This document shows, piece by piece, positions 15,694 to 55,225 of a stretch of 64,000 nt of DNA; position 1 is the first letter of the stretch; each line of letters begins with the position of its first letter. Below the pieces are notes generated by a model. The model searched no databases. It saw only the letters and a list, made by a program, of their open reading frames with translations, and was not told where the DNA came from. This DNA comes from a virus (Duplodnaviria; Heunggongvirae; Uroviricota; Caudoviricetes): positions 42,370 to 106,369 of the IMG/VR virus record IMGVR_UViG_3300032038_000031; one strand, 5' to 3'. Position numbers and translations under genes: made by a program.

Positions 15694-15707
15694 AATAATG
15701 TCCTCCT

Positions 15708-20054: not shown

Positions 20055-20140
20055 GATTTTACCCTCGTTAGCATATATTTCTATCTTTGCCAGAGATATT
20101 AATGAAATATATACCCCCATGATGAGTGGGTTAAGTGTGT
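20055..20140. repeat. intron 5'-region repeat (similar to 47400..47465)
   Basis: cc(c/t)cgttagcatatat...atatacccc(c/t)atgatgagt(g/a)gg(t)taa in dnaE intron C and gyrB intron. Confidence 0.65.
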
Positions 20141-20153
20141 GAGCACCATTACA

Positions 20154-20531: not shown

Positions 20532-21876
20532 CTCATTAATCCATTAGCATCCGATAATTCTAAAATATTTTTTGGCTTTATTTTTTTTGCCGCTTGACTG
20601 CCAACTTCTGATTCAACATTTATATTCGATGAGAGACGCTACTCTCTCACCCGTTCTCTTATGAACTGCTTACAATTTCTTGTAAGATTAGACTATATCT
20701 TCTAAGAATCCCATTTCCACTATCAATCGCTTATAGTGTACTCCCTTTCGGGATAGTCGTTGAACATTAAACTTAACCATTCTTTTATTTCTTCTTCTGA
20801 ATTTGTATAATCAAATTGTTTAAATTTTATATCATTATCTAAACACCATTGCTTTTTTATAGCATCACTTTGTTGAATCTTTTTTAATTTTTCTTCTCCT
20901 CCAAAATGTTCATAAGCTTTAAAGTGTTGTTCACCATGATATTCAATAATATAATTTTGTTCAGGGAGATAAAAATCAAATCTATATGAATGACCATCTA
21001 AAATGAGAGGATATTCTCTAATATATTTAACTTTTAATTCGTCTAAATAATATCCAATTATTTGTTCAAATTTTGAACCTAAATTGCAATATTTACATTT
21101 TATAGGTCCATCAATTAAAGATATTCCCCATCTATAGTCTTCTTTTCCACAGTTAAGACATTTTATTTTATATTTAGAATTGCGATTAGTAAAAACTTCA
21201 TTTTCACATAAAATAAAGTTTTGTTTATTTAAGAAATGCCATTTTTCAATAAATTCACTATTTGTGCAATTTCTTGTAAATTTTTTCTCTGGATTACAGT
21301 TACATTTTTTATGACCATTACTAATATTGCCATAATATTCGTAACTAATTTTTCCGCAATTTAAGCATTTTACTTTTATTGGTTTTTTTGTGTCTATAGA
21401 TTTAGTTTTACTTAATTGATAGCTGTCTTCGTCATTAAAAAGAAAATAATAATGTTTTTTTTGTAAAACTAGATTTATTTTTTCTGCTTTAATTTTTCTT
21501 TTTTGACAAGGACATTTGATTTCTCTCCGAATAAAATTTCTTTTTTCATCCGAATGTTGTTCTCCGCAATAACTACATTGCCAATTAAAAATATCTCGAT
21601 TTTGTAACTTTAGAAAAAAATCTTGATTTTCCATAATAGCTGAGTTATCAGGATTTAATATTATTAATTGTTGCATCCATTATTCACATCCTTTTTTGTT
21701 TCTATATGATGTAAAAAATGGTTAAGTTTCTTTGCTGCGAATTGTCCAATTTTTTTCATTTTTACCATCCAATATTTATTACAATATCTGCTACACTATA
21801 CATCACTGTTAGCTGCGGTAGAAAAAACTTAAGGAGTTTCTCGCAATTAAGGATTTTTTATTTCAGCTTAATTCTC
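20532..21876 (-). mobile_element. group I intron B of dnaE with endonuclease ORF (boundaries +/-6 nt)
   Basis: R element GUUCAACGACUAUCCC (20745-20760) and S element AAGAUAUAGUC (~20690-20705) downstream of ORF; exon homology break at ...DLFQL / LMTAEKG. Confidence 0.6.
20723..21676 (-). CDS. intron-encoded endonuclease: triple Zn-ribbon N-region + PD-(D/E)xK/Vsr-like C-domain
   Basis: three C..C..C..C modules; 'YIIEYHGEQHFKAYEHFGG' shared with 8214..9074. Confidence 0.5.
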   Translation of the reverse strand: MQQLIILNPDNSAIMENQDFFLKLQNRDIFNWQCSYCGEQHSDEKRNFIRREIKCPCQKRKIKAEKINLVLQKKHYYFLFNDEDSYQLSKTKSIDTKKPIKVKCLNCGKISYEYYGNISNGHKKCNCNPEKKFTRNCTNSEFIEKWHFLNKQNFILCENEVFTNRNSKYKIKCLNCGKEDYRWGISLIDGPIKCKYCNLGSKFEQIIGYYLDELKVKYIREYPLILDGHSYRFDFYLPEQNYIIEYHGEQHFKAYEHFGGEEKLKKIQQSDAIKKQWCLDNDIKFKQFDYTNSEEEIKEWLSLMFNDYPEREYTISD

Positions 21877-22085
21877 ATCAACTGAAAGAGGTCAAGAACC
21901 TCATTATTTTCAATAGCTGTCCAAATTTTTGAATCACTCATATCTAAAATTTCAGGATGTAAATATTTATTATATGCTTCTCTTAAAGTCATATTAGGAT
22001 CAATAACTTTATCTTTTTGTAACAATTTAATACATTGAGCAATTTTATCTTGGACTTTTGTTAATAATAGATCATATTTTGTCAT
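21877..22085 (-). CDS. dnaE: DnaE exon 2 (MTKYDLLLTK...EVLDLFQL)
   Basis: joins exon 1 ...CEAAG|MTKYDLLL ~ DnaE 'vEalGLLKMDFLGL'; 'VLDLFQL' ~ 'GVFQLES'. Confidence 0.6.
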
Positions 22086-22099
22086 CGTGTATATCCATT

Positions 22100-22215
22100 A
22101 TTTCTAATGGCACTGACTATATCTTACTTATTATAAAATAATAAGAATACCGTTTCGAACTGCGTACCAATAGCAGTCCTACTCTACTTAATGTAGATAG
22201 TCGATAGGCACATCG
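22100..22215. repeat. intron 3'-region repeat (near-identical to 46262..46374)
   Basis: ctgactatatcttacttattataa...tttcgaactgcgta(c/t)caatagcag(t/c)cctactc shared by dnaE intron A and gyrB intron. Confidence 0.75.
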
Positions 22216-23115
22216 TTAAATATTTGTCCATGTTTTTCTATTTATAATATTTCTAACAGATGTTGTTGATACTTGAGGGTACAACTGATAGATTTTTGAA
22301 TTGCTAACTCCTTCATCGTGGAGTTTTCTAATATTTAAAACATCTTTTTCTGTTAGTTTAGCTCGTCCATTATTAGAACCTGCTTTTTTATTATTTTTTA
22401 TTTGACTATGCTTTTTTCGATTTTCTTCTGAGAACACTTCTGGCATAACCAATTTATATTTATTACCATAATAAATATTCCAAAAACTCCATTTATCTTT
22501 GAACCTGTTTTTATATGGTTTAAAAGCTTGTTCCCAATCAATGCCTTCTGCATACATATTCCTTAATTGCACAACTTCGTTATAAGTTAATTTATTTCGT
22601 GAAGTAAATTGATTAGAAAATTCTGAATTAAATGGATAAATTGGAGTTGAGGTTTTTATATTTTTGTATGTTTTATCTAAATAAACATCTTTAAAGGCTG
22701 CATAAGAAATTTTATCTGAAAATTTTTCATACAATACATATTCAGGAATATCTCTATGGTCTTTTATATATTGAGCTTCTTCATTAGTTAAAACAGCTTT
22801 TCCATTATCTTCACCATATCTTTTTTTAAGTTCAGGCTGAATAAAATTCATACCACCTTTAGCTACATTATAACCATTTGGAACTAAAGTATTTTCCTTT
22901 TCTATATGTTCCTGTTCTAACTTAGATGCTTCTTCAAGCGATAAATTAGAAAATAAAACTTCAAAAATAAAATTATCTACCCCGTATTTTTGAATAGCTT
23001 TTCCAATAACCATTTTTTTATTATATTTATGATTATTCCATCTTTTTTTATAATCATTTGTAATACCAATGTATTTTTTATTATTTTTTTTATTCGTTAT
23101 TCTATATAAAAACAT
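22216..23115 (-). CDS. GIY-YIG homing endonuclease
   Basis: MFLYRITNKKNNKKYIGITNDYKKRWNNH GIY-YIG; RBS AAGGAGAAAG. Confidence 0.8.
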   Translation of the reverse strand: MFLYRITNKKNNKKYIGITNDYKKRWNNHKYNKKMVIGKAIQKYGVDNFIFEVLFSNLSLEEASKLEQEHIEKENTLVPNGYNVAKGGMNFIQPELKKRYGEDNGKAVLTNEEAQYIKDHRDIPEYVLYEKFSDKISYAAFKDVYLDKTYKNIKTSTPIYPFNSEFSNQFTSRNKLTYNEVVQLRNMYAEGIDWEQAFKPYKNRFKDKWSFWNIYYGNKYKLVMPEVFSEENRKKHSQIKNNKKAGSNNGRAKLTEKDVLNIRKLHDEGVSNSKIYQLYPQVSTTSVRNIINRKTWTNI

Positions 23116-23338
23116 TTCTTTCTCCTTTCTTCTAAGATTTTATAAATCTTATTTTATTACCCTCTTAATAAAATAAGTTTTAGTCTGAACAAATTTAACA
23201 ACTTCGCCCGGGATTATCTTCAACTCAACTTGCTAAGACTTCCCCGGTAGCTATATAGGTATTTTTTACTTACAATTTCTTTGCCTATATAACCTCGCTG
23301 GTAAGGCGATTAGATATTATTGGGCTAGACTTTCGTTA

Positions 23339-25246
23339 ACCCGCTGCTTCACACATATGAAGATCATATTGAGTAATAATTTCTCCACTAGGAGTTTTCA
23401 TAAAACAGCCAAATGTATATGGATCTTCATCAAATAAAATAACGCCTGATGCATGAGAACCTCTTTGCTTAATAAGTCCTTCTATGCTGATCATAATTTC
23501 AAACAATCTATCATATTTATTTACTTCATTGATAAATGAAGTTACTGGCTTTCGACCTTTATTAGGATTACCATACATGACATCTTTTAATGTCCATAAA
23601 AATCCTCTTTCTTGTGGAATAAGTGAAGATAAATATTGAGCCGTATCGACATCAATTCCATCTGGATATTTTTCACTCGTATATCCTCGACAAGCTGTTA
23701 AAATAGCACTTTTTGTGCTCTCTGTCCCAAAAGTCGCAATTAAAGTACAACCCAAATTTTTCTTACTTAATTCATCAATTTCTGGAAGAAACTTTGCTCC
23801 TCTTTCTTCTTTAATCTTTTGTAAAATTAAAGGTCTTTTTGATGGACAAAGATCAATATCAATATCGCCTAATTCTGACCGAGCCTTGTTGAGATACCTC
23901 CAGAAAGGAAGCTCCCATTTTATCGGATCAAGCTGTGTGATTCCTAACAAATAATGATTCAACCCTGAACAAGAAGAACCTCTTCCCGCTCCAACAGTAC
24001 TTCCACAATCCCAAAATAAATCTACATAATGTTGTAAAGTAATTGGGTATGAAAACATATTAGTTTCTAGTACTTTACTAATTGTTAATTTAATATCCGC
24101 TTCTTCTTCTAATCTTGATAAATAAATACCATGTAATTGTTTATCAATAACTTTTTGTTTTTCTTTGTCTAACAATGATAAACAACATTCATTAATCCAA
24201 TAACGATGATGTTGATCATCACTACTATTAAGAAAACTTAAAGTAGGGAAATTTTTATTATCAACTAATAAAGAAATATTATTTTTAGGATAATTTTTAA
24301 CCTCTACTTTTGGAATAGTTTGTTTATGTCTTAAACTATAATTTTCGATTTTATCAAAAATTTCCATTGAATTATTACATAATATCTTATATTGTTCTAA
24401 ATCAATTCCACTTGGAATTAAATTTTCTAAAATTTCTTCTTCTTTTTGTAAAAAAGCATATTGATAAAAACTATCAACTTCTCGTTCGCCATTTTTAGAA
24501 TTTAAATACGCTTTATGAACATATCTATCTTCTGGTCTTAAAAAATGTGAGTCTGTACCAATTACAACTTTTAAGCTAAATGACTTTGCTATTGATAATA
24601 GTCTTTTATTTACTTCAATTTGTTCTTTTGATTGCCCTGGAGCAATTTCTATATAAAAATCATCATGAAATAAAGATATGCAAAATAAAATAAATTTTAC
24701 AATCTTGTTATGATATAAAGTAATATCATCTACAATTTGATGTTTTTCTGCTTCTATTAAATTTTTTGTTAATGTTGAAAGCTCTCCACCTAAACAAGCA
24801 GTTGACGCAATTAAACAATTAGGATATTTATTTACAATTTCTTGTAAATCTGAGTATAAAGTAACTACTCTTTCTTGTCCTCTATCAACAAAAGAATTCA
24901 TCCAAGCTCTTGAAGATAATTCTCTTAAAGCTCGATGACCTTTTTTATTTTTTGCTATTAAAATAAAATGATAATATTTTTGACCTTTTTCTCTTGTTTC
25001 ATTTAAATAAATTTCATTACCTAAAGCAATTTTAAAATTTGGATACTTTTTTTGAATTTCTTCACTGTATATATTTACTTCCATATGAGAACATAAGGCA
25101 TCGTGATCTGTAATCGCAATGCCTTTTAATCCTATCTCAATAGCTTTATCAATTAAAGCCTTTGGTTGAGTTATACAATCAAGAAGTCGAAGATTTGAAT
25201 AACAAGTATGAGAATGAATTTCCATTCTTGGAATTATACTATTCAT
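23339..25246 (-). CDS. dnaE: DnaE exon 1 (PHP domain + palm)
   Basis: MEIHSHTCYSNLRLLDCI...ITDHDAL PHP motifs; ends ...TQYDLHMCEAAG. Confidence 0.75.
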
Positions 25247-25274: not shown

Positions 25275-25305
25275 ATTATATCATTTATTTTTAAAAAAAT
25301 CAAAT
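25275..25305 (-). promoter_or_regulatory. phage promoter family copy (TTGATTT-N-TGATATAAT)
   Basis: minus strand reads TTGATTtttttaaaaataaaTGATATAATatat. Confidence 0.5.
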
Positions 25306-28052: not shown

Positions 28053-28082
28053 ATTATATCATTTTTTTAAAAAAATATCAAA
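28053..28082 (-). promoter_or_regulatory. phage promoter family copy
   Basis: TTGATATttttttaaaaaaaTGATATAAT on minus strand. Confidence 0.5.
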
Positions 28083-33112: not shown

Positions 33113-33145
33113 AATTATACCATATTTTTTTTAAAATATCAAAAA
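33113..33145 (-). promoter_or_regulatory. phage promoter family copy
   Basis: TTGATATtttaaaaaaaatatggTATAAT. Confidence 0.45.
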
Positions 33146-33177
33146 GAGTGCTATTATTAGCACTCTTTAAAAAATAT

Positions 33178-33838: not shown

Positions 33839-33905
33839 CTTGTTATCCTAAAGGTTTTTTATCCTTTAGTTCTTATACTTTCTATTTGTATAAGTTCAGC
33901 ATATC
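33839..33905. repeat. intron 3'-end repeat (copy of 7461..7530)
   Basis: see above. Confidence 0.65.
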
Positions 33906-33951
33906 TTTTTATCTCCATTCTAGAGATATCGAAGTCTCGTGGAAAATTATA

Positions 33952-36374: not shown

Positions 36375-36782
36375 TTAATTTACTTTGTATTTTTTACCTT
36401 TTTCTGTTAATTTATAATATACTGGACTATTTTTTTTATCTTCAATAACTTTTTCTACATAACCATCTTTGAATAATTTATTCATTGTTCCAGAAACAGA
36501 TCTTGAAGAAAGAAATAACAATTCACCAATTTGTCGAGCATTAAAACGACAATCTTGTTTTATTGATAATGAACTATTATTATATTTTTTAGTTTCTTCT
36601 TGTAAACATTGAATAATTTTTAAACCTTTTTCAGTAGGTTTATCATTTTCATCTGAAACTTTAATTAAATCTTGAAAGAAATCAAAAGCCTCTTCACTTA
36701 ACTTAATTTTGCCATTTTTTAATAATAAGTCAATTTCTTTAATAAAACAATCTTTTTTATTATTTTTCATTAATTTTTCCAA
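36375..36782 (-). CDS. winged-helix (MarR-like) DNA-binding protein
   Basis: ARQIGELLFLSSRSVSGTMNKLFKDGYVEK HTH + wing. Confidence 0.45.
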   Translation of the reverse strand: MEKLMKNNKKDCFIKEIDLLLKNGKIKLSEEAFDFFQDLIKVSDENDKPTEKGLKIIQCLQEETKKYNNSSLSIKQDCRFNARQIGELLFLSSRSVSGTMNKLFKDGYVEKVIEDKKNSPVYYKLTEKGKKYKVN

Positions 36783-36805
36783 CCTTTAAATCTTTTGATA
36801 ATTTA

Positions 36806-36836
36806 TTATATCAAAATTTTTTATTAAAATCAATAA
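36806..36836 (-). promoter_or_regulatory. phage promoter family copy
   Basis: TTGATTttaataaaaaatttTGATATAAT. Confidence 0.5.
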
Positions 36837-38823: not shown

Positions 38824-38918
38824 TTTAAATAATCTCCTTTTATTTCTTAAATTTATTTATATTAAAGTAATTAGTTTTAATTACTTATAATCTATTATAA
38901 CAAAAAATTTTTAAAATT

Positions 38919-39119
38919 TCAACATAATTTTTTATTCATAATTTCTGCATCTATTGCAAGTAAAATTGTCAACATATCTTGTTCTGGATATTTTTGGGAA
39001 ATTTCTCCCACTATATTATAAATTTCATCTTCAATTAATTTTGAATTTTTGCCCATCTTTTTTTGTTTTTCTAATTGAGCAATTCTTTTACTATATTTTT
39101 TTATATCTTTCTTTTTCAT
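38919..39119 (-). CDS. hypothetical protein
   Basis: 66 aa, own promoter-like element upstream. Confidence 0.35.
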   Translation of the reverse strand: MKKKDIKKYSKRIAQLEKQKKMGKNSKLIEDEIYNIVGEISQKYPEQDMLTILLAIDAEIMNKKLC

Positions 39120-39143
39120 ATATTTTATTATATCAAAAAATTT

Positions 39144-39989
39144 TTATAATTGCAAATAATTCTTAATGAAGTTTTCTTCTGAAATAATAGGAATGCCTTT
39201 TTCTTTTGCAGCTTTATTCTTTGCTGTCATAGATTCTATATCATTGTTAACTAAACAAAAAGTTTTATTTGTAATATTATTTGATACTTTTCCTCCTAGA
39301 GATTCAATTTTTTCTTTTAATTCATTTCTATTCTTAAAAGAGTGTAGTTTTCCTGTAATTACGATAATTTTATCCATTAATGCGGAGTTCTCTTGTATGT
39401 TTATTTTTTCTTCTTTTTGAATATGAATATCTTTATTTGCAATTAATTGATCTGCTATTGAAAAATCATAAGATAATAAAGCAGATTTTTTACTTTCTCC
39501 AAAATCTGGAAGTTCACAAAAATCATAATTATCATTAATAGCATCTCTTAATTCTTCATAAGTAAAGAATTTTTCACACAATTTTTTAGCTACAGTTTTT
39601 CCAATTAATGGTATTCCAAGAGCTGAAATAAAAGCAGACAAACTACAATTCCTACTATATTCAATAGCATTAAGAATATTATCTACTGATTTTATTCCAA
39701 AACCTTCTTTTTTAATCCAATCTTCTCTATGCTTATTTAAAGTAAAAATATCTAATGCGGATGTTACCCAACCCCAATTTATTAATTTATTAAGAGTAGC
39801 TTTAGATAGTCCTTTTATATCTAAACCTTTTTTCCCGCAAAAATATTCTAATCTATTAAGTAAACGTGATTTGCATTGTTCATTAGGACAAAATAAAATC
39901 TTACTATTATTTTCTTGTTTAATTATTAATTCTGTATTGCAAATGGGACAATTTTTTGGAATTTCAAAATATATATATTGCATTATCAT
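39144..39989 (-). CDS. ligA: NAD-dependent DNA ligase C-terminal fragment (Zn-finger, HhH, BRCT) - separately translated
   Basis: CPICNTEL...CPNEQC Zn finger, HhH region, IVITGKL...LGGKVS..KT..LV BRCT; own RBS AAGGAAGA; ATGA overlap with upstream ORF. Confidence 0.75.
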   Translation of the reverse strand: MIMQYIYFEIPKNCPICNTELIIKQENNSKILFCPNEQCKSRLLNRLEYFCGKKGLDIKGLSKATLNKLINWGWVTSALDIFTLNKHREDWIKKEGFGIKSVDNILNAIEYSRNCSLSAFISALGIPLIGKTVAKKLCEKFFTYEELRDAINDNYDFCELPDFGESKKSALLSYDFSIADQLIANKDIHIQKEEKINIQENSALMDKIIVITGKLHSFKNRNELKEKIESLGGKVSNNITNKTFCLVNNDIESMTAKNKAAKEKGIPIISEENFIKNYLQL

Positions 39990-40276
39990 TCTTCCTTATT
40001 TTTTAATATTTTTACTATAGCTTCTGCATGATTTTTATTCAAAGTATAACAATATACTTCTCCAGTAGTAGCACGATACCATGGAATAATATCATAACTT
40101 TCATACTCTCCATTATGGTCATTCCAATGAATAACTAAAGGTTGTTTATCCGCATCCAATTTCCCATAGTATTTTTCTGTTAATATTCCAACTTTTGCCC
40201 AACGGATAATAATATATATATTTATAGCTTTACTATATTTTCTTTTTAATAATAACTGTTTAAATTTCTTTAGCAT
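39986..40276 (-). CDS. hypothetical protein inside ligA split
   Basis: 96 aa, AT-rich, no ribozyme-like structure; coupled to ligA-C. Confidence 0.4.
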   Translation of the reverse strand: MLKKFKQLLLKRKYSKAINIYIIIRWAKVGILTEKYYGKLDADKQPLVIHWNDHNGEYESYDIIPWYRATTGEVYCYTLNKNHAEAIVKILKNKEE

Positions 40277-40964
40277 ATTTATTTTTTTCCTTTTGATAAT
40301 TTAAAATTTGTTCCATGTGCTTTAACCAAAAATCTAAATCATAATCTAATTTCATTAAATTACAATATTTACAAGCTGGAGTACAATTATTTTTGTTATA
40401 GCCTTTTTGAGAATCTATACGGTCTATTCCTATTAAACCTTGTGAATCGCCACAGTAGCTACAAGGTTGAGAAGTTAATGTTTTAAAATCTTGAAAAGTC
40501 AAATTAAAATCAATATTTCTTTTTCGAGCATTTTTTTTATATATATTATATCTACCTTCTACTGAAGAAGTTTGACATTGTTTACATTCTCCTGAATATC
40601 CATCTTTTTGAGCCACATTTTTCCAAAAATCAGAAAGTGGAAGCCATTGTTTGCATCTAAAACATTTTTTCTTAATTATATTACCTTGTTCATCTCTAAT
40701 ATGAATTTTAATATCTGCTAAATTAGCTATTGTTTTTAATCGCTCACAACCACAATTAGTAGAAGTGTGTGCTTTTAAAGTTCTTGCGGAAACAGGTTTG
40801 GTTGTATGTTTATCGCATTGACATTCACAAACCCACATTGCTTTTCCACTGTTATCATTTGTAGTTCTATATAAAACTCTCCATTTTCCAAAGATCTTAT
40901 TTGTTAAATCTTCAGCTCTTCCTATTGATATTTTCGGAAAAATTTTTAAGTATTCACTATCCAT
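40260..40964 (-). CDS. free-standing HNH endonuclease (Zn-module + HNH) inserted in ligA
   Basis: GKWRVL..WVCECQCD module; CSYCGDSQGLIGIDRIDSQKGYNKNNCTPACKYCNLMK HNH; overlaps ligA-N end by 19 nt. Confidence 0.7.
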   Translation of the reverse strand: MDSEYLKIFPKISIGRAEDLTNKIFGKWRVLYRTTNDNSGKAMWVCECQCDKHTTKPVSARTLKAHTSTNCGCERLKTIANLADIKIHIRDEQGNIIKKKCFRCKQWLPLSDFWKNVAQKDGYSGECKQCQTSSVEGRYNIYKKNARKRNIDFNLTFQDFKTLTSQPCSYCGDSQGLIGIDRIDSQKGYNKNNCTPACKYCNLMKLDYDLDFWLKHMEQILNYQKEKNKYAKEI

Positions 40965-42199
40965 TTTCCATTTTCATCCTTTGCACGTTCTATTTTAGGG
41001 ATAATTTGATTTCTCTTTGATACTTCTATTATTTGACCTTTAAAAGGATGTAGTCCTAATGTTTGATGCATAATAGAAATATTTGATAAACTTGCACGAG
41101 AAATTTCCGTTCCATCAATATTTATTTTTTCAAATAGAGCAACTGGTGAAATTTGACCAGTGCGACCCATACTCCATAAAATATCTATTAACTTTGTTTC
41201 ATATAAATCATCTGTAAATTTAAATGCAATACCTCCACGAAAATGATGATCTGTATAACCTAATTTATTATAAATATCTGTATCATCAATTTTTACAACT
41301 ATGCCATCAATAGGATATTCTTTTTCTTTTGCAATATTTACTAAATTTGTAATTACATTTTCTATTTTCTCTAATGTTTGTTGATTATTAGATAAGATGT
41401 CATAAGGAACAACAGTAAAACCTAAACAGTCTAAATAAAATAATTTACTATGTAAATTTTTAACTAATAAATTGTTTGTATTATCTATAGATATTAAATC
41501 CCAAGCAACAAAAGATAAATGCCTTTTTGCACATTCCTCTGAAGATAACAGTCTAATACTTCCCGCAGCAAAATTTCTCGGATTACTATAACTTTTTATT
41601 TTATGCTGGTTAAAGTTTTGATAAGTACAAATAATTTCCCCATCAATAGTTAAGTTACCTTTTGCTTCAATACGATTAGGGATTGAGGGAATTACTAAAG
41701 CATTATGTAAAATATCTTCTCCAATTTCTCCATCTCCTCTTGTTTCTGCTCTTACCAAATAACCATCTTGATAAGATAAAGAACAAGTAAGTCCATCTAA
41801 CTTATTCATTAAAATAATTGGCTCACAAGAATCAGAGTTAGATACAGATTTTGAAAAATTTAATAATGTATTAATATCTTTTGTCTTTTGTAAAGATAAC
41901 ATTTTGTGGTTATGTTTAACCTTATTTAGCTTAGATACAGTATTATAATTAATCTTTTGAGTAGGAGAATTATCACAATAATAACCAGTCTTTTGTTCTA
42001 GTTGAACAAGTAGAAAATAAAACTTATCCCAATCCATATCTGTCAATCCACTATCAAGTCCTTCATCATAAGCAATAGTAGCTTTATTTAATATTGGAAC
42101 AATCTTATTAATTATTTCTATTCTCTTATTGTTATCTTCATTTATAGTAAGTTCAGTTACACCTTGTTGATATAACTCTGCTAATTGATTATCTAACAT
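40946..42199 (-). CDS. ligA: NAD-dependent DNA ligase N-terminal fragment (adenylation + OB domains)
   Basis: KLDGLTCSLSY (KxDG), RAETRGDGEIGEDI, ends GQIIEVSKRNQIIPKIERAK ~ LigA 'GDtVvirRAGdVIPqV'. Confidence 0.8.
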   Translation of the reverse strand: MLDNQLAELYQQGVTELTINEDNNKRIEIINKIVPILNKATIAYDEGLDSGLTDMDWDKFYFLLVQLEQKTGYYCDNSPTQKINYNTVSKLNKVKHNHKMLSLQKTKDINTLLNFSKSVSNSDSCEPIILMNKLDGLTCSLSYQDGYLVRAETRGDGEIGEDILHNALVIPSIPNRIEAKGNLTIDGEIICTYQNFNQHKIKSYSNPRNFAAGSIRLLSSEECAKRHLSFVAWDLISIDNTNNLLVKNLHSKLFYLDCLGFTVVPYDILSNNQQTLEKIENVITNLVNIAKEKEYPIDGIVVKIDDTDIYNKLGYTDHHFRGGIAFKFTDDLYETKLIDILWSMGRTGQISPVALFEKINIDGTEISRASLSNISIMHQTLGLHPFKGQIIEVSKRNQIIPKIERAKDENGKWIVNT

Positions 42200-42237
42200 A
42201 TAAAATTCTCCTTATTTATTTCTAAATAATTATATCA

Positions 42238-42265
42238 AAATATTTTATAAAAAGCAATTTTTATT
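42238..42265 (-). promoter_or_regulatory. phage promoter family copy
   Basis: TTGCTTtttataaaatatttTGATATAAT. Confidence 0.5.
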
Positions 42266-42360: not shown

Positions 42361-44694
42361 TCATAATTTTACTACTGCGGTTGCAGTAGATTTTATCATC
42401 ATATTTCCTAGACTTTGTCTACTTAATTTTGGAATATCTTTTGCAGAAATACAAATACTATTAGTTGGTCCGATAACAACAATATTATCTTCATCATTAA
42501 TCATTTCTGCTCCAATAATTTCATGACTATTTTTGGTTACAAAAATTCCTTTTCCGCCTTTAGACTGGATAGGAAATTCTTTAAGTTCAATTTTCTTTCC
42601 TAGCCCTTCAGCGGTAAATATTCCTACATAATCATTAGTATTATGAATAGGTAATACTGCAATAACTTCATCATCATCGTTTCTTAAATTAATACCTTTA
42701 ACCCCACTTGTAACTCTTCCTATTGGTGAAATTGTATTAGTTTCAAAACGAATTGCTATACCCTGTTTAGTTATTAAAATTAATTCTTCATCATTTAAAA
42801 AGGTTACTTTAGAGATAGAATCTCCATCTTTTATTTTAATTGCTGTAATACCATTTCGTTTAGTCTTAAAATATTCTTCTATTTTTGTTTTCTTTACCAA
42901 TCCATTTTTAGTAATAAATACAACATATTCAGCCTTACTCTTTCTATATAGAGAGGTAATAGCAATAATATGTTCTTCAGGAGGCAAAGAGATAAGGTTG
43001 TTAATTGGTGTTCCTTTTTCCGCATTTGTCCCTACTGGTACACTATCAACAAGTAAACGATACATCTTACCTTGATCAGAAAACATCATTAAAGTGTCAA
43101 CAGTATTAGTAGAAATACAATTTAATAAAGTATCATTTTGAGTTTTTACTCCTTTTCCAAATCTCTTTTGAACTTTAAAATTTTTACTTGGGACTCTTTT
43201 AATATTTCCGCCTTTAGTCATTACAACAACACAATCTTCTGGGGCAACTGCCTCTATTTCTTTTTCATTAGAAGATGCATTAATTTGAGTAATTTCAGTT
43301 CTTCTTTTATCTCCAAATTTTTTAACAATTTCATTTAAACGATTTCTTAATTCTTGAATTTGAATAGATTTATTTAATAATAGAGCTTTTAAATCAATTA
43401 CTTTTTTATCTAAATCACTTTTTTCTTGTTGTAATTCAATTTTTTCTAATCCCGCTAATCTACCAAGTTTCATATCTACAATAGCTTTTGCTTGATTATC
43501 TGTAAATTTATATATCTTAACAAGATTATCTTTTGCGGCAACTGAAGATTTTGATTTTTTAATTAAACTAATAATATTATCAATATCCTCTAAAGCTCTA
43601 ATAAGACCGTCTACAATTTCTAACCTTGCTTGGGCTTTTGCTAAATCAAATTTAGCTTCTTTGCTAATACAAGAAAGATTATGATTAACATAAATCATAA
43701 TACAATCTTTCAAATTTAATTCAACTGGAGTTTTATCAACAAGTCCTACTTGATTATAAGATACACTGGTTTGAAGTCCAGTTTTAGCAAAAAGTTTTTG
43801 AACAACAGAATCTAAAGATACATCTTTTTTACACTCAATGACAATACGCAAACCTTTTTTGTTACTTTCGTTACGAACATTTTTAACTCCAACAATTTCT
43901 TCATTATCACAAGCTTTACCAATCTCCGCTAAAAGATTTTCTGTATTTTGTCCATAAGGAATTTCATAAAAGACAATTTTATTTTTTTCAAAAGTATATT
44001 TTCCTCTAACTTTAATACTACCATGCCCAGTTTTCATTATTGCGGGGATATCCTTTTGATTAATGATTACTCCTCCTGTTGGGAAATCTGGACCGGGTAG
44101 ACTTGGTTCTTTACCATCCAAATAATCATTAATGGCAGTTGCAACTTCTCCTAAATTATGAGGTAGCCATGAGCAAGCAATAGCGACACCTATGCCACTA
44201 TTAGGGTTACATAGTAAATTTGGAAAAATTGAAGGCAAAGTTGTTGGTTCAAAATCATTTTCATCATAATTTGCAATAAAATCAACATTTTTTTTCTTTA
44301 AATTATTTAATAAACCTAATTCTGCAATTTTAGATAATCTTGCATTTGTATATCTATAAGCGGCTGGTCCATCTCCATCAATATTTCCCATGTTACCATG
44401 AAAATCAATAAGTGGATATCTCATAACCCAAGGCTGAGATAATCGAACCAATGCTCCATATACAGAAGAATCACCGTGAGGATGCCATTTACCAATGACA
44501 TCTCCGACAATTCTAGCACACTTTACATAAGGTTTATTAGAAGTATATTTACCATCATAACCTGCCCATAAAATTCTTCGTGCTACTGGTTTTAGTCCTG
44601 TTCTAGCGTCAGGTAAACTACGATCTGTATTAACTGCCGCCGCATATTCTATAAAATTTGTACTTAATTCATTAATAATATCATTAGTTTGCAT
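42361..44694 (-). CDS. gyrA: type IIA topoisomerase A subunit (GyrA/ParC-like)
   Basis: LPDARTGLKPVARRIL, HPHGDSSVY, catalytic AAYRYTNARL; 777 aa. Confidence 0.85.
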   Translation of the reverse strand: MQTNDIINELSTNFIEYAAAVNTDRSLPDARTGLKPVARRILWAGYDGKYTSNKPYVKCARIVGDVIGKWHPHGDSSVYGALVRLSQPWVMRYPLIDFHGNMGNIDGDGPAAYRYTNARLSKIAELGLLNNLKKKNVDFIANYDENDFEPTTLPSIFPNLLCNPNSGIGVAIACSWLPHNLGEVATAINDYLDGKEPSLPGPDFPTGGVIINQKDIPAIMKTGHGSIKVRGKYTFEKNKIVFYEIPYGQNTENLLAEIGKACDNEEIVGVKNVRNESNKKGLRIVIECKKDVSLDSVVQKLFAKTGLQTSVSYNQVGLVDKTPVELNLKDCIMIYVNHNLSCISKEAKFDLAKAQARLEIVDGLIRALEDIDNIISLIKKSKSSVAAKDNLVKIYKFTDNQAKAIVDMKLGRLAGLEKIELQQEKSDLDKKVIDLKALLLNKSIQIQELRNRLNEIVKKFGDKRRTEITQINASSNEKEIEAVAPEDCVVVMTKGGNIKRVPSKNFKVQKRFGKGVKTQNDTLLNCISTNTVDTLMMFSDQGKMYRLLVDSVPVGTNAEKGTPINNLISLPPEEHIIAITSLYRKSKAEYVVFITKNGLVKKTKIEEYFKTKRNGITAIKIKDGDSISKVTFLNDEELILITKQGIAIRFETNTISPIGRVTSGVKGINLRNDDDEVIAVLPIHNTNDYVGIFTAEGLGKKIELKEFPIQSKGGKGIFVTKNSHEIIGAEMINDEDNIVVIGPTNSICISAKDIPKLSRQSLGNMMIKSTATAVVKL

Positions 44695-46249
44695 ACTTTG
44701 CCTCCTTAGAATACATCTTTATAAATTCTTTTCTTGGCAATACTGATCCGCCCATTAAATCATCAAAAAGCTCATCAGATTTATCTACATCTTCTACTGT
44801 AATTTGTTTAATAATTCTTTGATCAGGGTTAACCAATACTTCAGTTTCCTCTGCATCCATTTCGCCTAATCCTTTTAAGTGCTTTACCTTAAAATTCTTA
44901 CCAATGTGTTTTTGTTTATATTCCTCTAATTCATTATCATCTTTTAAATAAATAATTTTATCCTTAGTTTCTTCAATACAATATAGAGGAGGAACTCCAG
45001 CATATACATATCCTTCCTCAATTAGTTTAGGACAGAAAGTCCATATAAAAGTATAAAAGAGGTTCTTAATATGACTTCCATCAACGTCGGCATCTGACAT
45101 AATAATGATTTTCCCATATCGCAACTCATCTCGATCAAAAGTTAATTTCATTGTTTTTAAATCAACTTTTAGTCCAAAAGCTTCAATCATTGTCATAATT
45201 TCCGCATTTTTTTGAATCTTATCTAGAGTCGCTTTTCTGACATTAAGTATTTTTCCTCTTACTGGAATAACCGCTTGATATTCATTATTTCTTGCAGTCT
45301 TTAAATTACCACTAGCACTGTCACCTTCTGTGACATATACTTCACACTTTAATCGATCTTGAGAATAACAGTCTGCTAATTTAGAATCAAATTTTAAAGC
45401 TTTCTTCTTTTTTATGTTTTGTTTATTTCTAATATTATCTCTTGCTTTTTTTGCAGCTTCTCTTGCCTTTCGGGCGGAAATGGCTTTATCTGCAATAGCT
45501 TTTACTTCTTTTTTATTTTCAGATAACCAATATTGAATTTTATCTGTCAACGCCTGAGTAAAAGGTTTCATATCAATTTTAGTAATTGTACTTTTGACTT
45601 GAGCATCATAAGCAATATTCGGAGCAGTTAAATTAAAAACAATATACATACCCTCTTGAATATCTTCGCCAGATAAATTAGCATCTTTTTCTTTTAGCCA
45701 TTTTTCTTCTCTAAAGAATTTATTAAATTCACGAGTAATTAAAGTTTTAATTTGTGTAATATGAGGACCTTTTTCTGTTAAACCAGTATTGACATAAGGT
45801 ACAATAGTCATTGAATAGTTTGAAGTATAAGTAAGAATAAAATCCATTTTATTTTTACCTTCCGCCATTTGTACTTCACATCTATTTTTTATAATTTCTT
45901 TATCTTTAATTGCTTCATCAACTAAATCATTTAATCCATTTTTAGAATAATAAGTTAATATTTTCTTATCTTTTGGATTATCTGTTTTTTGTATTGTTAA
46001 TTCTATTGTCAACCCTGGACATAAGCATACAATAGTTTTAAATAAAGATTTAACTTTTGGTAATTCAACACTAGTATTAGTAAAAAATTCTTCTGATGGT
46101 TGCCATACAACCTTTGTACCATTTGGTGCTGTTGTTTTACCAGATTTTCTTTCTACAAATTCTCCTTCTTTAAAACTAACCTCTTCCCATAGACCATCTC
46201 TATTTGTTGTTACAGTGCAACAATGTGATAAGAAATTTGTGATTTTGCT
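44684..46249 (-). CDS. gyrB: type IIA topoisomerase B subunit (GyrB/ParE-like) exon 2 (transducer + TOPRIM)
   Basis: begins SKITNFLSHCCTVTTNRDG (~VSVVNALSEWLEVTVKRDG); EVYVTEGDSASG and IMSDADVDGSHI TOPRIM. Confidence 0.8.
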   Translation of the reverse strand, partial: SKITNFLSHCCTVTTNRDGLWEEVSFKEGEFVERKSGKTTAPNGTKVVWQPSEEFFTNTSVELPKVKSLFKTIVCLCPGLTIELTIQKTDNPKDKKILTYYSKNGLNDLVDEAIKDKEIIKNRCEVQMAEGKNKMDFILTYTSNYSMTIVPYVNTGLTEKGPHITQIKTLITREFNKFFREEKWLKEKDANLSGEDIQEGMYIVFNLTAPNIAYDAQVKSTITKIDMKPFTQALTDKIQYWLSENKKEVKAIADKAISARKAREAAKKARDNIRNKQNIKKKKALKFDSKLADCYSQDRLKCEVYVTEGDSASGNLKTARNNEYQAVIPVRGKILNVRKATLDKIQKNAEIMTMIEAFGLKVDLKTMKLTFDRDELRYGKIIIMSDADVDGSHIKNLFYTFIWTFCPKLIEEGYVYAGVPPLYCIEETKDKIIYLKDDNELEEYKQKHIGKNFKVKHLKGLGEMDAEETEVLVNPDQRIIKQITVEDVDKSDELFDDLMGGSVLPRKEFIKMYSKEAKYAN

Positions 46250-46261
46250 CGGTTATTCTTA

Positions 46262-46374
46262 TGTTTCCATAAGCCCTGACTATATCTTACTTATTATAAG
46301 TAATAAGAATGTCCATTTCGAACTGCGTATCAATAGCAGCCCTACTCCTCCGATCCGAGGATAGTCGATACAGC
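46262..46374. repeat. intron 3'-region repeat (copy of 22100..22215)
   Basis: see above. Confidence 0.75.
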
Positions 46375-47298
46375 TTATTGTTTTTTTCTTATTGGATATT
46401 TTTCATTTTTTTGTCGATATGTTGTTCCACAATTTATAGAACTTATTGTTTTTGGTTTTACATTAAATTCATTTGCAATTTTAGACATTGTTTTATTAGG
46501 TTCTTTTTTAAGTTGTTCTATAATTGAAATTACTTGTTCTTGAGTTAATTTTTTTGAACCAGTTTTAGATACTCTTAATGGATATTTTTCGTTTTCTCTT
46601 ATATAAGTTTTCCCATTATTAATATTATGAATTGTTGATTCTGCTACATTAAATTTATGAGCAATTTCTTTCATAGTTAAATTATTTTCTTTTAATAAAA
46701 CAAATATTTCATCTAATATCACTTCATCGAATTTAGAGTTATAATTTAATGTTCCTTTTTTAATCTTCTGAAATCCATTTCTAATAGGATAAATTTCAGA
46801 AGAATGAAAATAAGTTCTACCATTGTTTATATAAGATAAACAATTTAAATTAATATGATATTTTTTTGCTATATCTGTCATAGTTTCTTTACAAGCTTTT
46901 AATTCTTGATAAATTTGTTGAATCTGTTCTTCTGTAAAATTTGCTTGAGAATTTTTGCTACCTATATCAGCTCCATCTCCGCCTTCAGATATATTATATC
47001 CAAATTCTCTATTGTTACTATGATATTTAGCAATCCAATATTTTTCTCTTTTTCGCATTAACTCTCTATTTTCAGCATCTATTTCTTCTAAAAGAATAAA
47101 ATCTTTTATTTTACCGTATTTTTGTATTGCTCTTTCAATAGGTAAATTATTTCTAAAATCAAAATTATGCTCAATCATTCTTCGTCTTATATTGTTACTA
47201 ATTCCAATATATTTTTTATTATTGGGAAAAAGAATCATATAAACACCAGAATAAATATGCTGTTTATCAGAGAGTTTTTGTAAATTTAATTTTTTCAT
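46375..47298 (-). CDS. GIY-YIG homing endonuclease
   Basis: IYSGVYMILFPNNKKYIGISNN..R GIY-YIG; RBS AAAGGTGG. Confidence 0.8.
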   Translation of the reverse strand: MKKLNLQKLSDKQHIYSGVYMILFPNNKKYIGISNNIRRRMIEHNFDFRNNLPIERAIQKYGKIKDFILLEEIDAENRELMRKREKYWIAKYHSNNREFGYNISEGGDGADIGSKNSQANFTEEQIQQIYQELKACKETMTDIAKKYHINLNCLSYINNGRTYFHSSEIYPIRNGFQKIKKGTLNYNSKFDEVILDEIFVLLKENNLTMKEIAHKFNVAESTIHNINNGKTYIRENEKYPLRVSKTGSKKLTQEQVISIIEQLKKEPNKTMSKIANEFNVKPKTISSINCGTTYRQKNEKYPIRKKQ

Positions 47299-47399
47299 AT
47301 AAGAATACCACCTTTGTGTCTTGATACTCTATATGAAAAATATCCAAATTGAATTAAACAATCTTGCCACGGGATTACCATGCTTTATTAAAGTTTAGG

Positions 47400-47465
47400 C
47401 TTCCCCGTTAGCATATATATTATTTATTATATATATACCCCTATGATGAGTAGGTAAAGACATAA
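47400..47465. repeat. intron 5'-region repeat (copy of 20055..20140)
   Basis: see above. Confidence 0.65.
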
Positions 47466-47480
47466 CAGGCAGTTTTATCT

Positions 47481-47846
47481 ACCAATGCCAAAAGAGCCTA
47501 AAGAAGTGCCCTCATATGCACCATCTTCTCGATATTTACCAGAAGTATTCAGTACTGAAAAAGCGGCTTCAAGAATTGATTTTCCATCTTCTCTAAAAGA
47601 ATTACAAATAAAACCTTGACCATAATCTTGTACTACTATTGTATTATCTTTTTCGTATATATATACTTCAATTTTATTACCATGTCCTAATCGAAATTCA
47701 TCAACCGCATTTGAAATAATTTCAACCAATAGCTGAGTTGAATAAGTAGTATCCCCTGCATACACCTGAGGTCTTAATCTTGTAAAAGCCAATGGGTCTA
47801 ATGACTCAATACTATCCTCTGTGTATAAATTGTTATTTGTAGACAT
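47481..47846 (-). CDS. gyrB: GyrB/ParE-like exon 1 (GHKL ATPase N-terminus)
   Basis: LLVEIISNAVDEF (N box), VQDYGQGF (G1), LNTSGKY...GTSLGSFGIG (G2). Confidence 0.8.
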
Positions 47847-47920
47847 TTATCTTCCCCTTCCTAATAACTTAATATAATAGATATTTTAATCTTAATAATT
47901 AATTATATCATTATAATTAA

Positions 47921-47948
47921 TTATATCATTTTTTTTAAGAAATATCAA
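47921..47948 (-). promoter_or_regulatory. phage promoter family copy (tandem -10 boxes)
   Basis: TTGATAtttcttaaaaaaaaTGATATAATtaattataatgatataat. Confidence 0.5.
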
Positions 47949-48232: not shown

Positions 48233-48739
48233 TTATTCCCCCTTATAAGTTAGATTATATTGAAACATGATTTTTCTAATTTTAGAAATGTTCTTTGTAG
48301 CAAAAGCATCTACTAATTCATTCCCAAAATTACCATCATGTCCTTTTAGCCATTTTACTTGACAAGATATTTTTTTTATGTTATAATTATTATATAAGGC
48401 TATTTGAGAATAGCAATCATATAATTCTAAAATTAGATCTAAATTTTCTACTACTTGATTTTTTGAATTTTTCCAATCTTTTTTCGCCCAACTATGCATC
48501 CAATTATTAAAAGTTTGTACACAATAATTAGAATCAGAATATAATATATATTCTTCATTAGGATTTTTTAAAACAATATTTTTTAAAGCATAAATAATAG
48601 CTTTTAGTTCTTCTCTATTATTAGTAGTTTCAGCAGTTTGTTCTTGATGAGCATTAATAATAATATTATCTTTTAATGCGGCAATCCCAAAACCACCACC
48701 TTCTTTTCTTTTGCTACCATCTGTATAAATTGTAATCAT
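48233..48739 (-). CDS. rnhA: RNase H (RNase HI-like)
   Basis: MITIYTDGS...EL.A...DS motifs; GGAG RBS 7 nt upstream of this ATG; listed longer N-terminus is translated promoter repeat. Confidence 0.7.
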   Translation of the reverse strand: MITIYTDGSKRKEGGGFGIAALKDNIIINAHQEQTAETTNNREELKAIIYALKNIVLKNPNEEYILYSDSNYCVQTFNNWMHSWAKKDWKNSKNQVVENLDLILELYDCYSQIALYNNYNIKKISCQVKWLKGHDGNFGNELVDAFATKNISKIRKIMFQYNLTYKGE

Positions 48740-48773
48740 TAATTTTCTCCCATCATTTTTATTTTCTATAATA

Positions 48774-48803
48774 ATTATATCATTTTTTTTAAAAAAAATC
48801 AAA
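48774..48803 (-). promoter_or_regulatory. phage promoter family copy within ~60-bp conserved block
   Basis: TTGATTttttttaaaaaaaaaTGATATAAT; block also at 52775-52840 and 55165-55230. Confidence 0.55.
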
Positions 48804-48854
48804 AAAATAGGTATTATAATAAAAATTATAATACCTATAAAATATTTCTTTTAT

Positions 48855-50096: not shown

Positions 50097-50483
50097 TTAA
50101 ACTATATCACTGTCTTCATATTTAGTATCATTATTATTTTCATCTATTGTTTCATCATTATTATCTATTAATGCTTTTGTTTTATTATTTTTTATTTTTT
50201 GTTTGTTTTCTGTTGCGGCTTTAATTAAATATCCAAGGATCCCGCCCGTAATAGGGATTCCAATAAATTCATAATAAGGAGCCATTTCTACTTGTTCTGG
50301 AGAAGCAATAGCGAAATAAGAATTTAGTACTAAACCATAAACCATAACAATAAGCCAAATAAAAATAATGATAGTAATAATAATTTTAGAAAATTCTTTT
50401 AAATGATTTCTTTTTTTCTTATAGTTGGGCTTTTTCTTATTAGTTTTTTTCATTATATTTTTACCCCCTTTATAAAAAATCAA
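50097..50483 (-). CDS. small membrane protein (possible second holin/antiholin); true start probably MKKTNKK at ~50453
   Basis: basic N-terminus, 2 TM segments, acidic C-terminus. Confidence 0.4.
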   Translation of the reverse strand: MIFYKGGKNIMKKTNKKKPNYKKKRNHLKEFSKIIITIIIFIWLIVMVYGLVLNSYFAIASPEQVEMAPYYEFIGIPITGGILGYLIKAATENKQKIKNNKTKALIDNNDETIDENNNDTKYEDSDIV

Positions 50484-52410: not shown

Positions 52411-52774
52411 TATTCTTCTCCTTTAAACAAATATTTTTTTTATTTGTATTCCAACATTTTCCATCAATACAACATAAACATTTTTGTTCTGTACAAATTG
52501 GTAAATCTTCTACTGGGATTCTTTGTCCATCTTCTGTAAAACGACCTAATTTAAACTCCATTAAAAAATTCTGATAAGAATAATTACTAAAAGGTCTTAT
52601 TTCACAATGATTTGTTTCTTTTTTACAATGAATACAATATAATTTTTTTAAATGACCAGATTCTCTAAAAGCATTTTTCTTTCTTGGAATAGGAATACCT
52701 TTATTGCCACACTGAGTACAATAGAAATCAGAAATCAACATATTATTTACTTTACACATAATTAAACACCTCAT
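52403..52774 (-). CDS. Zn-ribbon protein (start likely MRCLIM.. at 52774)
   Basis: CTQCGNKG...CIHCKKETNHC; listed N-terminal 32 aa is translated promoter/leader repeat (IFFKKNDIIIIENK). Confidence 0.4.
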   Translation of the reverse strand: MRCLIMCKVNNMLISDFYCTQCGNKGIPIPRKKNAFRESGHLKKLYCIHCKKETNHCEIRPFSNYSYQNFLMEFKLGRFTEDGQRIPVEDLPICTEQKCLCCIDGKCWNTNKKNICLKEKNNE

Positions 52775-52806
52775 ATTTTTATTTCTTTTCTTATTTTCTA
52801 TAATAA

Positions 52807-52834
52807 TTATATCATTTTTTTTAAAAAAAATCAA
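52807..52834 (-). promoter_or_regulatory. phage promoter family copy
   Basis: TTGATTttttttaaaaaaaaTGATATAAT. Confidence 0.55.
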
Positions 52835-52837
52835 AAA

Positions 52838-52864
52838 ATAAGAGGAGTTTAAACTCCTCTTATT
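52838..52864 (-). terminator. rho-independent terminator after SPFH gene
   Basis: aagaggagtttaaactcctctt perfect hairpin then U-tract (minus strand). Confidence 0.7.
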
Positions 52865-52866
52865 CA

Positions 52867-54626: not shown

Positions 54627-54655
54627 TTCTATATATATTATAACAAAATTTTTAT
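54627..54655 (-). promoter_or_regulatory. phage promoter family copy (40-bp block also at 59117-59157)
   Basis: TTGATTtttaataaaaattttgTTATAAT. Confidence 0.5.
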
Positions 54656-54770
54656 TAAAAATCAAAAAAATATTATTCAGATCGAAAGAAAGATATTGTT
54701 AAATCTTTTGCTTCTTTACAAAAGTCACATTTAGAAGATAACCATTCTCTCATACAATCTGCACAATTAG

Positions 54771-55148: not shown

Positions 55149-55196
55149 ATAGTTTTTTCAATATTTTTTTATTTCTTTTCTTATTTTCTATATATA

Positions 55197-55225
55197 TTAT
55201 ATAATATTTTTTAAAAAAAATCAAT
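55197..55225 (-). promoter_or_regulatory. phage promoter family copy overlapping upstream terminator arm
   Basis: TTGATTttttttaaaaaatattaTATAAT. Confidence 0.5.

Follow-up and report, generated by a model that had tools for sequence, protein, structure and literature searches.

We analysed a window of 64,000 nt (the whole stretch of DNA considered here) from a large, uncultivated and very AT-rich phage of the Caudoviricetes, which corresponds to positions 42,370–106,369 of the IMG/VR record IMGVR_UViG_3300032038_000031 and has a GC content of about 26%. Its gene set is a phage-type replication and nucleotide-metabolism module, and the minus strand carries nearly all genes between ~6.2 kb and 64 kb. 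Dispersed over this strand are at least 17 copies of one promoter family. Judging from their sequence, they are very probably strong near-consensus promoters read by the host RNA polymerase with its housekeeping sigma factor (sigma-A/sigma-70 type), serving genes of replication, repair and nucleotide metabolism. From them the phage would transcribe these genes as a series of short units, each promoter being followed by a short purine-rich 5' untranslated region with a GGAG-type Shine-Dalgarno sequence (SD). The same gene content makes an early or middle class plausible for the downstream genes.

The coordinates given for each copy span its -35 and -10 hexamers and the spacer between them. With a 29-nt weight matrix derived from the copies, 17 minus-strand sites scored at least 14 bits, compared with 0–2 in Markov-shuffled sequence, and the pattern TTGATT-N14-20-TATAAT occurs 11 times, while 1.6 occurrences are expected. 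A generic sigma-70 scan was rejected as evidence, because it is uninformative in an AT-rich window: its counts equal those of shuffles (137 observed vs 133.6 expected, 145 vs 141, and 122 vs 129.5). The signal therefore comes from the combination of TTG, a spacer of exactly 17 bp and TGnTATAAT. An earlier note, made from this DNA without database searches, had listed 14 minus-strand copies; all of them are present, and the weight matrix adds those beginning at 15746, 10563 and 6772. It had also proposed aligning the copies for a motif, which yields the 29-nt matrix with its TTG-17 bp-TGnTATAAT core. Its description of the copies as promoters directly upstream of genes agrees with our results: they are of sigma-70/sigma-A type with an extended -10 and co-oriented with the genes, 17 of 17 lying on the coding strand.

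The anatomy of the copies is highly uniform. In the -35 hexamer TTG is invariant and A occupies position 4 in 15 of 17 copies, the variants being TTGATT, TTGATA, TTGACT, TTGACA, TTGAAA, TTGCTT and TTGCAA (clade consensus TTGAyw). The spacer is exactly 17 bp in all 17 copies, TATAAT is found in 16 (TATACT in copy 6772) and the preceding TG also in 16 (TT in copy 55224). A purine 6–8 nt after the -10, about 7, is the likely transcription start site (TSS). Fifteen of the 17 copies have an SD and a start codon 14–66 nt beyond the predicted TSS; the other two are one intragenic and one possibly leaderless copy. The copies and the genes or open reading frames (ORFs) behind them are as follows.

61007–61035, minus strand: TTGATT-17-TGTTATAAT; predicted TSS ~61000; 66-aa ORF (ATG 60974), then a DUF7788/DUF2828 gene; the -35 hexamer contains the TGA that ends the upstream NAPRTase gene
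59122–59150, minus strand: same 29-nt core as the 54.6 kb copy; predicted TSS ~59115; metallophosphatase gene (ATG 59092)
55196–55224, minus strand: the sole copy without the G of the extended -10 TG; predicted TSS ~55189; 120–125-aa ORF of unknown function
54637–54665, minus strand: predicted TSS ~54630; metallophosphatase gene (ATG 54605)
52806–52834, minus strand: exact T8A8 spacer; reference copy of a ~62-nt repeat; predicted TSS ~52799; 118-aa Cys-rich ORF (ATG 52759)
48774–48802, minus strand: exact T8A8 spacer; predicted TSS ~48767; RNase H gene (ATG 48739); the TTG of its -35 is a false ORF start
47920–47948, minus strand: TTGATA-17-TGATATAAT; its -10 region is duplicated in tandem (18 bp); GyrB N-terminal fragment (ATG 47846)
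42229–42257, minus strand: TTGCTT-17-TGATATAAT; adenylation/OB fragment of NAD-dependent DNA ligase (ATG 42199)
39127–39155, minus strand: weakest copy, 18.7 bits; TTGCAA-17-TGATATAAT; 66-aa ORF whose ATG (39119) is ~8 nt past the -10; if active, it may give a leaderless mRNA
38894–38922, minus strand: TTGAAA-17-TGTTATAAT; 86-aa ORF (ATG 38823)
36805–36833, minus strand: 131-aa ORF (ATG 36770) with weak winged-helix matches, every one below the curated Pfam cut-offs
33114–33142, minus strand: TTGATA-17-TGGTATAAT; predicted TSS ~33107; 167-aa ORF (ATG 33076), then a DnaB-like helicase gene
28053–28081, minus strand: SF1 (UvrD/PIF1-like) helicase gene (ATG 28001)
25275–25303, minus strand: predicted TSS ~25267; PolIII-alpha N-terminal fragment (ATG 25246)
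15718–15746, minus strand: new here; perfect TTGACA-17-TGATATAAT with an atypical spacer; LAGLIDADG endonuclease ORF (ATG 15693) between NrdD fragments
10535–10563, minus strand: new here; TTGAAA-17-TGATATAAT, inside an nrdG-like ORF (10396–10902); may serve the genes further on, from the next start at 10411, as an internal promoter
6744–6772, minus strand: new here; TTGACT-17-TGATATACT; last minus-strand gene (DUF3882-like, ATG 6723)

Copies are denser at 47.9–61.0 kb (7 copies, in a region with small ORFs of unknown function) than at 6.7–42.3 kb (10 copies). The tandem duplication at the 47.9 kb copy (AATGATATAATTAATTAT twice, 47902–47937, minus strand) doubles the extended -10; its second -10 has no correctly spaced -35.

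The family is conserved in relatives. Our clade comparisons cover the window and ~75 related uncultivated loci that were found through their polymerase. When sites were selected again in a non-circular manner, with TTG-N17-TGnTAnAAT only and the spacer left unused, 169 unique sites lay on the gene strand and 6 on the opposite strand. The spacers of these sites are almost free of G and C, with T at 63–73% at spacer positions 6–8 (-29 to -27 of the promoter) and A at 62–84% at positions 13–16 (-22 to -19). Directly before TG stand T (86%) and A (69%), which is the TRTG -16 motif of Gram-positive sigma-A promoters (-17 to -14). Seven nt after the -10 there is A in 79% of sites, preceded by T in 73%, and a purine-rich leader follows. 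The weight matrix matched the relatives 170 times, 165 times on the gene strand. Moreover, in 31 of 66 related loci the orthologous PolIII-alpha gene is preceded by the same type of promoter, its -35 starting 47–58 nt before the start codon in most of the 31 and 93 and 98 nt before it in two; in the loci without it, another gene is inserted upstream.

Recognition of these promoters also corrects gene starts. As the earlier note had supposed, two mechanically called ORFs, from TTG 48802 (the -35 hexamer itself) and GTG 52870, begin with a spurious peptide, (L)IFFKKNDIIIIENK, which is the product of translating through the promoter. The true starts are likely ATG 48739 and ATG 52759, each preceded by an SD.

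Several promoter-like sites were not accepted as members. The site at 50483–50452 (TTGATT, 20-bp spacer, TATAAT) has no TG, and its "TATAAT" overlaps a start codon behind an AAGGGGG SD. Its sequence TTGATTTTTTATAAA (50452–50483, minus strand) consists of a -35 hexamer and a T-run, resembles the 5' half of the family and then enters this SD and start codon; a good terminator hairpin lies upstream of it at 50552–50524 (minus strand). A crossover inside a spacer may have left it there as a shortened promoter copy. Plus-strand matches at 18080, 27047 and 8858 were dropped, being without the spacer and TG features of the family. In addition, a perfect TTGACA-17-TGTTATAAT (12/12 plus TG) is located antisense inside the RNase H gene, at 48359–48387 on the plus strand; it is the top generic promoter match of its 20 kb and could be an antisense promoter.

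Terminator-like hairpins, spacer and probable reading polymerase

Some of the promoters are preceded by a stable hairpin. In the 42 nt upstream of the -35, structures with a free energy of -10 kcal/mol or lower are found at 30% of clade sites compared with 3.5% of random control positions, and of 62 hairpins at or below -8 kcal/mol, 36 have a stem that ends 0–1 nt from TTG. Five of the 17 window copies have such an upstream hairpin, with z from -4.0 to -6.7.

52836–52865, minus strand: terminator-like, 13 bp, -16.7 kcal/mol; abuts the 52.8 kb promoter; its tail TTTGATTTTT is the -35 and the T-run of the spacer
33143–33168, minus strand: terminator-like, 11 bp, -14.2 kcal/mol; abuts the -35 of the 33.1 kb copy; tail TTGATATTTT
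6777–6805, minus strand: terminator-like, 13 bp, -13 kcal/mol; tail TTTCTTGACT enters the -35 of the 6.77 kb copy
48807–48838, minus strand: AT-rich, 14 bp, -14.3 kcal/mol, z=-6.7; comes after the amidase (endolysin-like) gene and ends 4 nt upstream of the 48.8 kb promoter
61038–61075, minus strand: AT-rich, 15 bp, -12.1 kcal/mol, z=-4.0; located at the NAPRTase gene's 3' end, stopping 2 nt short of the -35 in the 61.0 kb copy

An independent terminator scan calls three of these five, and the T-tails it reports are the promoter's own -35 and spacer. At the predicted terminators the sequence offers a stable hairpin, a T-rich tract next to it and a gene end, as in an intrinsic terminator. The proximal spacer is richer in T where a hairpin abuts the promoter (5.56 of 8 positions) than where none does (3.95 of 8, p=1.6e-6), and in the former group TTGAT is favoured over TTGAC. 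On these sequence grounds we infer that the -35 and its T-run (TTGATTTTTT) double as the U-tract of the upstream terminator. In about one third of the copies, the terminator hairpin of the upstream unit would abut the promoter and use TTGATTTTTT in this way, which would give a compact module for insulation and restart.

The earlier note had suggested that the symmetric T8/A8 spacer could be a regulator or bent-DNA site. In such a reading a palindromic T-run/A-run would be bound by a dimeric regulator of phage or host, or would form a bend, and switch the family together. It is true that TnAn is self-complementary, that the spacer pattern is conserved across the clade, and that the ORF behind the 36.8 kb copy (36375–36770) has its weak winged-helix matches. 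However, exact T8A8 is present in only 2 of 17 copies (48.8 and 52.8 kb). The junction from T to A ranges over spacer positions 8–13 among copies and the runs are interrupted differently in each, which a fixed operator would not tolerate; the wandering junction is thus a poor fit to a fixed dimeric operator, and the copies have neither symmetry at a fixed position nor conserved half-sites. The T content of the spacer tracks the abutting hairpin, and promoters of OLE RNA and tRNA genes in cells, described below, have the same type of spacer. As for a bend, phased T4A4 is said, from Hagerman's work of 1986, to be essentially straight, unlike A4T4. Furthermore, any AT-tract at -17 to -23 stimulates sigma-70 transcription through a backbone contact of R451 (PMC7229825). 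We consider a common operator or bend very improbable and explain the spacer pattern by the AT-tract preference of RNA polymerase together with the use of the T-run as terminator tail.

AT-rich spacers are known to increase promoter activity and TRTGn to stabilise the open complex (PMC2613000). In the proposed mechanism the A/T spacer would raise promoter strength via the AT-tract and the backbone contacts at -18/-17, with TRTGn stabilising the open complex.

Sites of this type also occur in cells. A genome collection in which each bacterial species is represented once was scanned with the extended consensus, the spacer pattern being imposed. The matches are mostly contigs of gut and rumen Bacillota metagenome-assembled genomes (MAGs), many of them phage-like and some clearly cellular. 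In two Clostridia MAGs the motif marks the 5' end of OLE RNA, whose genes lie at 2365–2987 in L085 and 5168–5790 in L086, and in a bacterial MAG contig its -10 lies 12 nt upstream of tRNA-Thr. The T/A-spacer architecture is thus shared by highly expressed RNA genes of cells, which favours recognition by host sigma-A over a phage-specific operator. The reader could also be a polymerase or sigma factor that the phage encodes or modifies rather than the unmodified host holoenzyme, since large phages frequently have their own sigma factors and the window is only part of the genome, so that such a gene could lie elsewhere. But the motif is the textbook sigma-A/sigma-70 consensus with TRTGn and is the same in form as the promoters of the cellular RNA genes, and among the ~50 window ORFs scanned there is no sigma or RNA-polymerase gene, the sole match to sigma-70 region 4 being a helix-turn-helix in a GIY-YIG endonuclease. 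A phage-specific reader of this kind is therefore highly unlikely in our judgement.

Several points weigh against recognition by the host enzyme, or limit what the evidence says about it. We sought a conserved UP element upstream of the -35 in the window and its relatives and found none. The 10563 copy is intragenic, and the 39155 copy is weak and stands too close to its ORF for a leader. Several window copies without a hairpin have T-runs as well, so the terminator-tail role is not the sole cause of the T-runs. As the spacer pattern was imposed in the genome-collection scan, the scan demonstrates that cellular promoters of exactly this type exist, not how typical they are, and many of its matches are probably phage contigs binned into MAGs. 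Lastly, a phage-encoded sigma factor with sigma-A-like specificity could still be the reader.

Among the scanned contigs, three of phage size that are binned as "Bacilli" and similar, namely L124 (JAFVUY010000119.1, a 158-kb contig), L173 and L188, have many copies of the family promoter. They also contain large tRNA arrays, with up to 20 tRNAs in 8 kb. Among these are suppressor-type tRNAs whose anticodons are CTA and TTA, a hint at phages that recode stop codons.

Repeated blocks and homology breakpoints

The copies were described in the earlier note as embedded in direct repeats of 40–60 bp. This is right for three copies, perhaps five; the remainder resemble one another only as the motif predicts. 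When the 62 nt that begin with the -35 are compared, any two of the 17 copies agree on average at 36 positions, while 35.4 are expected from independent draws of the motif profile. The simulated 99th percentile, 49/62, is surpassed by only two pairs, 55224/52834 (56/62) and 52834/48802 (51/62). These three copies form the ~60-bp block reported before: with 52773–52834 as reference, 55163–55224 is 90% identical over 62 nt and 48741–48802 is 82% identical. Their common leader TATAGAAAATAAGAAAAGAAAT (22 nt), which had been ascribed to all three, is exact at 52.8 and 55.2 kb, while the 48.8 kb copy shares its first 12 nt only; the third-best match is at the 61.0 kb copy (60982–61003, 3 mismatches). 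The pair 59150/54665 reaches 46/62, and its shared block, which had also been noticed, contains an exact run of 32 nt and is 81–85% identical over 46–57 nt.

The ORFs behind the 52.8 and 55.2 kb copies are unrelated (E=0.8), and the metallophosphatases behind the 54.6 and 59.1 kb copies have 26% identity over 72 aa (E=0.02). Duplication of genes was thus rejected as the source of near-identical promoters, as the downstream genes are unrelated or distant, and it follows that in this subset the regulatory block itself has been copied or gene-converted.

Relatives provide further evidence. We compared closely related pairs among 75 loci and collapsed their homology breakpoints to unique events. 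As a result, 34 of 243 unique breakpoints fell in the elements, which cover 3.3% of the sequence (p=2e-12); in intergenic DNA only, 25 of 82 did so against a coverage of 11.7% (p=4e-6). The enrichment is 3–4-fold. In locus L042 a cassette of ~0.96 kb lies between two promoter repeats of ~40 nt, and L041 has one chimeric copy with matching outer flanks. Between L018 and L020 the breakpoint is inside the spacer.

These data may be read in another way, in which the elements are primarily mobile regulatory cassettes (terminator, promoter and leader) that spread and recombine within and between phages, their uniformity arising from copying and gene conversion more than from selection for strength. 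The two copy pairs above the simulated percentile, the near-identical copies before unrelated or distant genes, the breakpoint enrichment and the two cases in relatives all speak for it. On the other hand, the mean identity at the motif expectation indicates that most copies are not recent duplicates, most indels of ~1 kb between relatives are far from promoters and look like homing-endonuclease insertions, and alignment ends are expected in conserved promoter islands even without recombination. The window itself has no close relative: megablast against phage records gave no DNA match, the exact 44-nt repeat block had no match in IMG/VR, and a metagenome scan with the RNase H protein of the window reached 47% identity at best. 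We hold primary mobility to be a real possibility, although not the probable one, and it would complement the promoter function rather than replace it. In the mechanism that we prefer, based on host-read promoters, a few true repeats before unrelated genes would serve the homologous exchange of gene cassettes, similarly to the promoter-early stem-loops (PeSLs), motifs composed of promoter and terminator that occur in T4-like myoviruses, concentrated there in hyperplastic regions with many ORFans (Arbiol et al. 2010, PMC2839356; Comeau et al. 2014, PMC4122927).

Gene content and other features of the window

The genes identified in the window can be listed in three groups.

First group: split PolIII-alpha, GyrA, split GyrB, DnaB-like helicase, primase, RecJ, SF1 helicase, RNase H
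Further genes: split NAD-dependent ligase, RNA ligase, NrdD, NrdG, guanylate kinase, NAPRTase, two metallophosphatases
Also present: amidase; many HNH, GIY-YIG and LAGLIDADG endonuclease ORFs

The polymerase is ~40% identical to those of Enterococcus phages and SPbeta, the nearest cultured relatives (Enterococcus and Bacillus phages), and 50–71% identical to those of ~75 uncultivated IMG/VR contigs, mostly of 100–145 kb. The host is most likely a low-GC member of the Bacillota.

Essential genes are broken up by endonuclease ORFs on the minus strand at 10883–25246, and also at 44684–47846 and 39144–42199. PolIII-alpha is in at least three pieces (23336–25246, 20099–20536 and 17495–18880), separated by GIY-YIG (22216–23115, 19070–19990) and HNH (20723–21676) ORFs. 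NrdD is likewise in three pieces (15844–16791, 12760–13377 and 10883–11554), divided by LAGLIDADG, HNH and GIY-YIG ORFs. GyrB is interrupted by a GIY-YIG ORF (46375–47298), and NAD ligase is in two parts. Introns, inteins and free-standing elements all remain candidates for these insertions. A group I intron or another RNA was considered as the reason for the 15.7 kb copy between the NrdD fragments and rejected, as Rfam at the gathering threshold returned no group I intron and no other RNA, and there were no tRNAs.

Two of the endonuclease ORFs that interrupt NrdD have consensus-type promoters of their own on the minus strand, at 15718–15746 and 12531–12559, with TTGACA instead of TTGATT as -35 and an atypical spacer. 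The latter is weaker (TTGACA-17-TGnAATAAT) and precedes a GIY-YIG ORF (ATG 12512). Dispersed repeats with 72–93% identity (7461–7561 with 33840–33945, and 22150–22184 with 46313–46347) adjoin endonuclease ORFs or gene-fragment junctions and could be sequences associated with introns or homing sites.

Two further features belong to the left end of the window. A bidirectional terminator hairpin (6158–6182, 11 bp with 5 GC pairs) is located where the plus-strand genes (1–5.8 kb) converge with the minus-strand module. A 514-aa ORF (4212–5756), matched only by PHROGs of unknown function, contains a 69-bp tandem repeat of ~12–14 units (a 23-aa repeat) at 4408–5631 on the plus strand.

Comparison with known systems

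The family is a well-known kind of phage regulatory element; it involves no new mechanism and leaves the current understanding of transcription unchanged. The early regions of T4, T5 and SPO1 contain multiple very strong promoters of host type that are read by the host polymerase (see also PMC2839356 and PMC12464699). The present family resembles them in its conservation beyond the hexamers, including the initial transcribed region, and in its location before replication and plausibly early genes, and differs in the details of spacer and leader sequence.

With the -16 TRTGn promoters of Bacillus subtilis and other Gram-positive bacteria, recognised by sigma-A (Voskuil and Chambliss, cited in PMC2613000), it shares a TTGACA-like -35, the 17-bp spacer, T-R-T-G at -17 to -14, TATAAT and a purine ~7 nt further on. 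Compared with typical cellular sigma-A promoters, however, the phage family is far nearer to consensus, more uniform, and has the phased T-run/A-run spacer. The AT-tract element at -17 to -23 (Warman et al. 2020, PMC7229825) is represented by the A-run at -22 to -19 and A/T at -18 to -16 within a spacer of nearly pure A/T. In Escherichia coli the tract offsets a missing -35 at spurious promoters and is not enriched at canonical ones (PMC7229825), whereas here it stands beside a full-consensus -35 and an extended -10.

A promoter model that applies across the clade (TTGAyw, 17 bases of A/T only, TRTGnTATAAT, start at +7) helps to annotate this uncultivated group of phages: it corrects false N-terminal extensions, defines transcription units and suggests a Bacillota host. 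The elements are also of interest as compact, strong and insulated terminator-promoter parts for synthetic biology in low-GC Gram-positive bacteria. That one stretch of DNA may act as terminator tail and as -35 and spacer together is a tidy overlap.

There is also a likeness to PeSLs. In both cases many dispersed consensus promoters for the housekeeping sigma factor lie in the interval from a stop codon to the following SD and start codon, here with a predicted stem-loop terminator at some of them, and some near-identical copies stand before unrelated genes; in the relatives, there are also the cassette indel flanked by two copies and the concentration of homology breakpoints at the elements. 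The differences are equally clear. This lineage has a PolIII-alpha replisome, kinship with Enterococcus and Bacillus phages and a probable Bacillota host, and with its split PolIII-alpha and its nearest cultured kin at ~40% it is not a T4-like myovirus. Its hairpin lies upstream of the -35, which would serve as the U-tail, while in phi1 and RB49 it is mostly between -35 and -10 or overlaps the -10. Hairpins occur at only ~30% of copies here, and there is no conserved AT-rich UP region. Because the phage is not T4-like and the position of the hairpin differs, we treat the relation as likeness and not membership: the elements would work like PeSLs. The idea that regulatory repeats double as recombination sites would thereby be extended to a different phage lineage. 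It is possible, though less likely than not, that a clade of large uncultivated phages of gut and rumen Bacillota employs cassettes of fused terminator and promoter, with TTGATTTTTT as U-tract too, as portable recombination modules for gene shuffling, an independently evolved Gram-positive-phage counterpart of the PeSLs.

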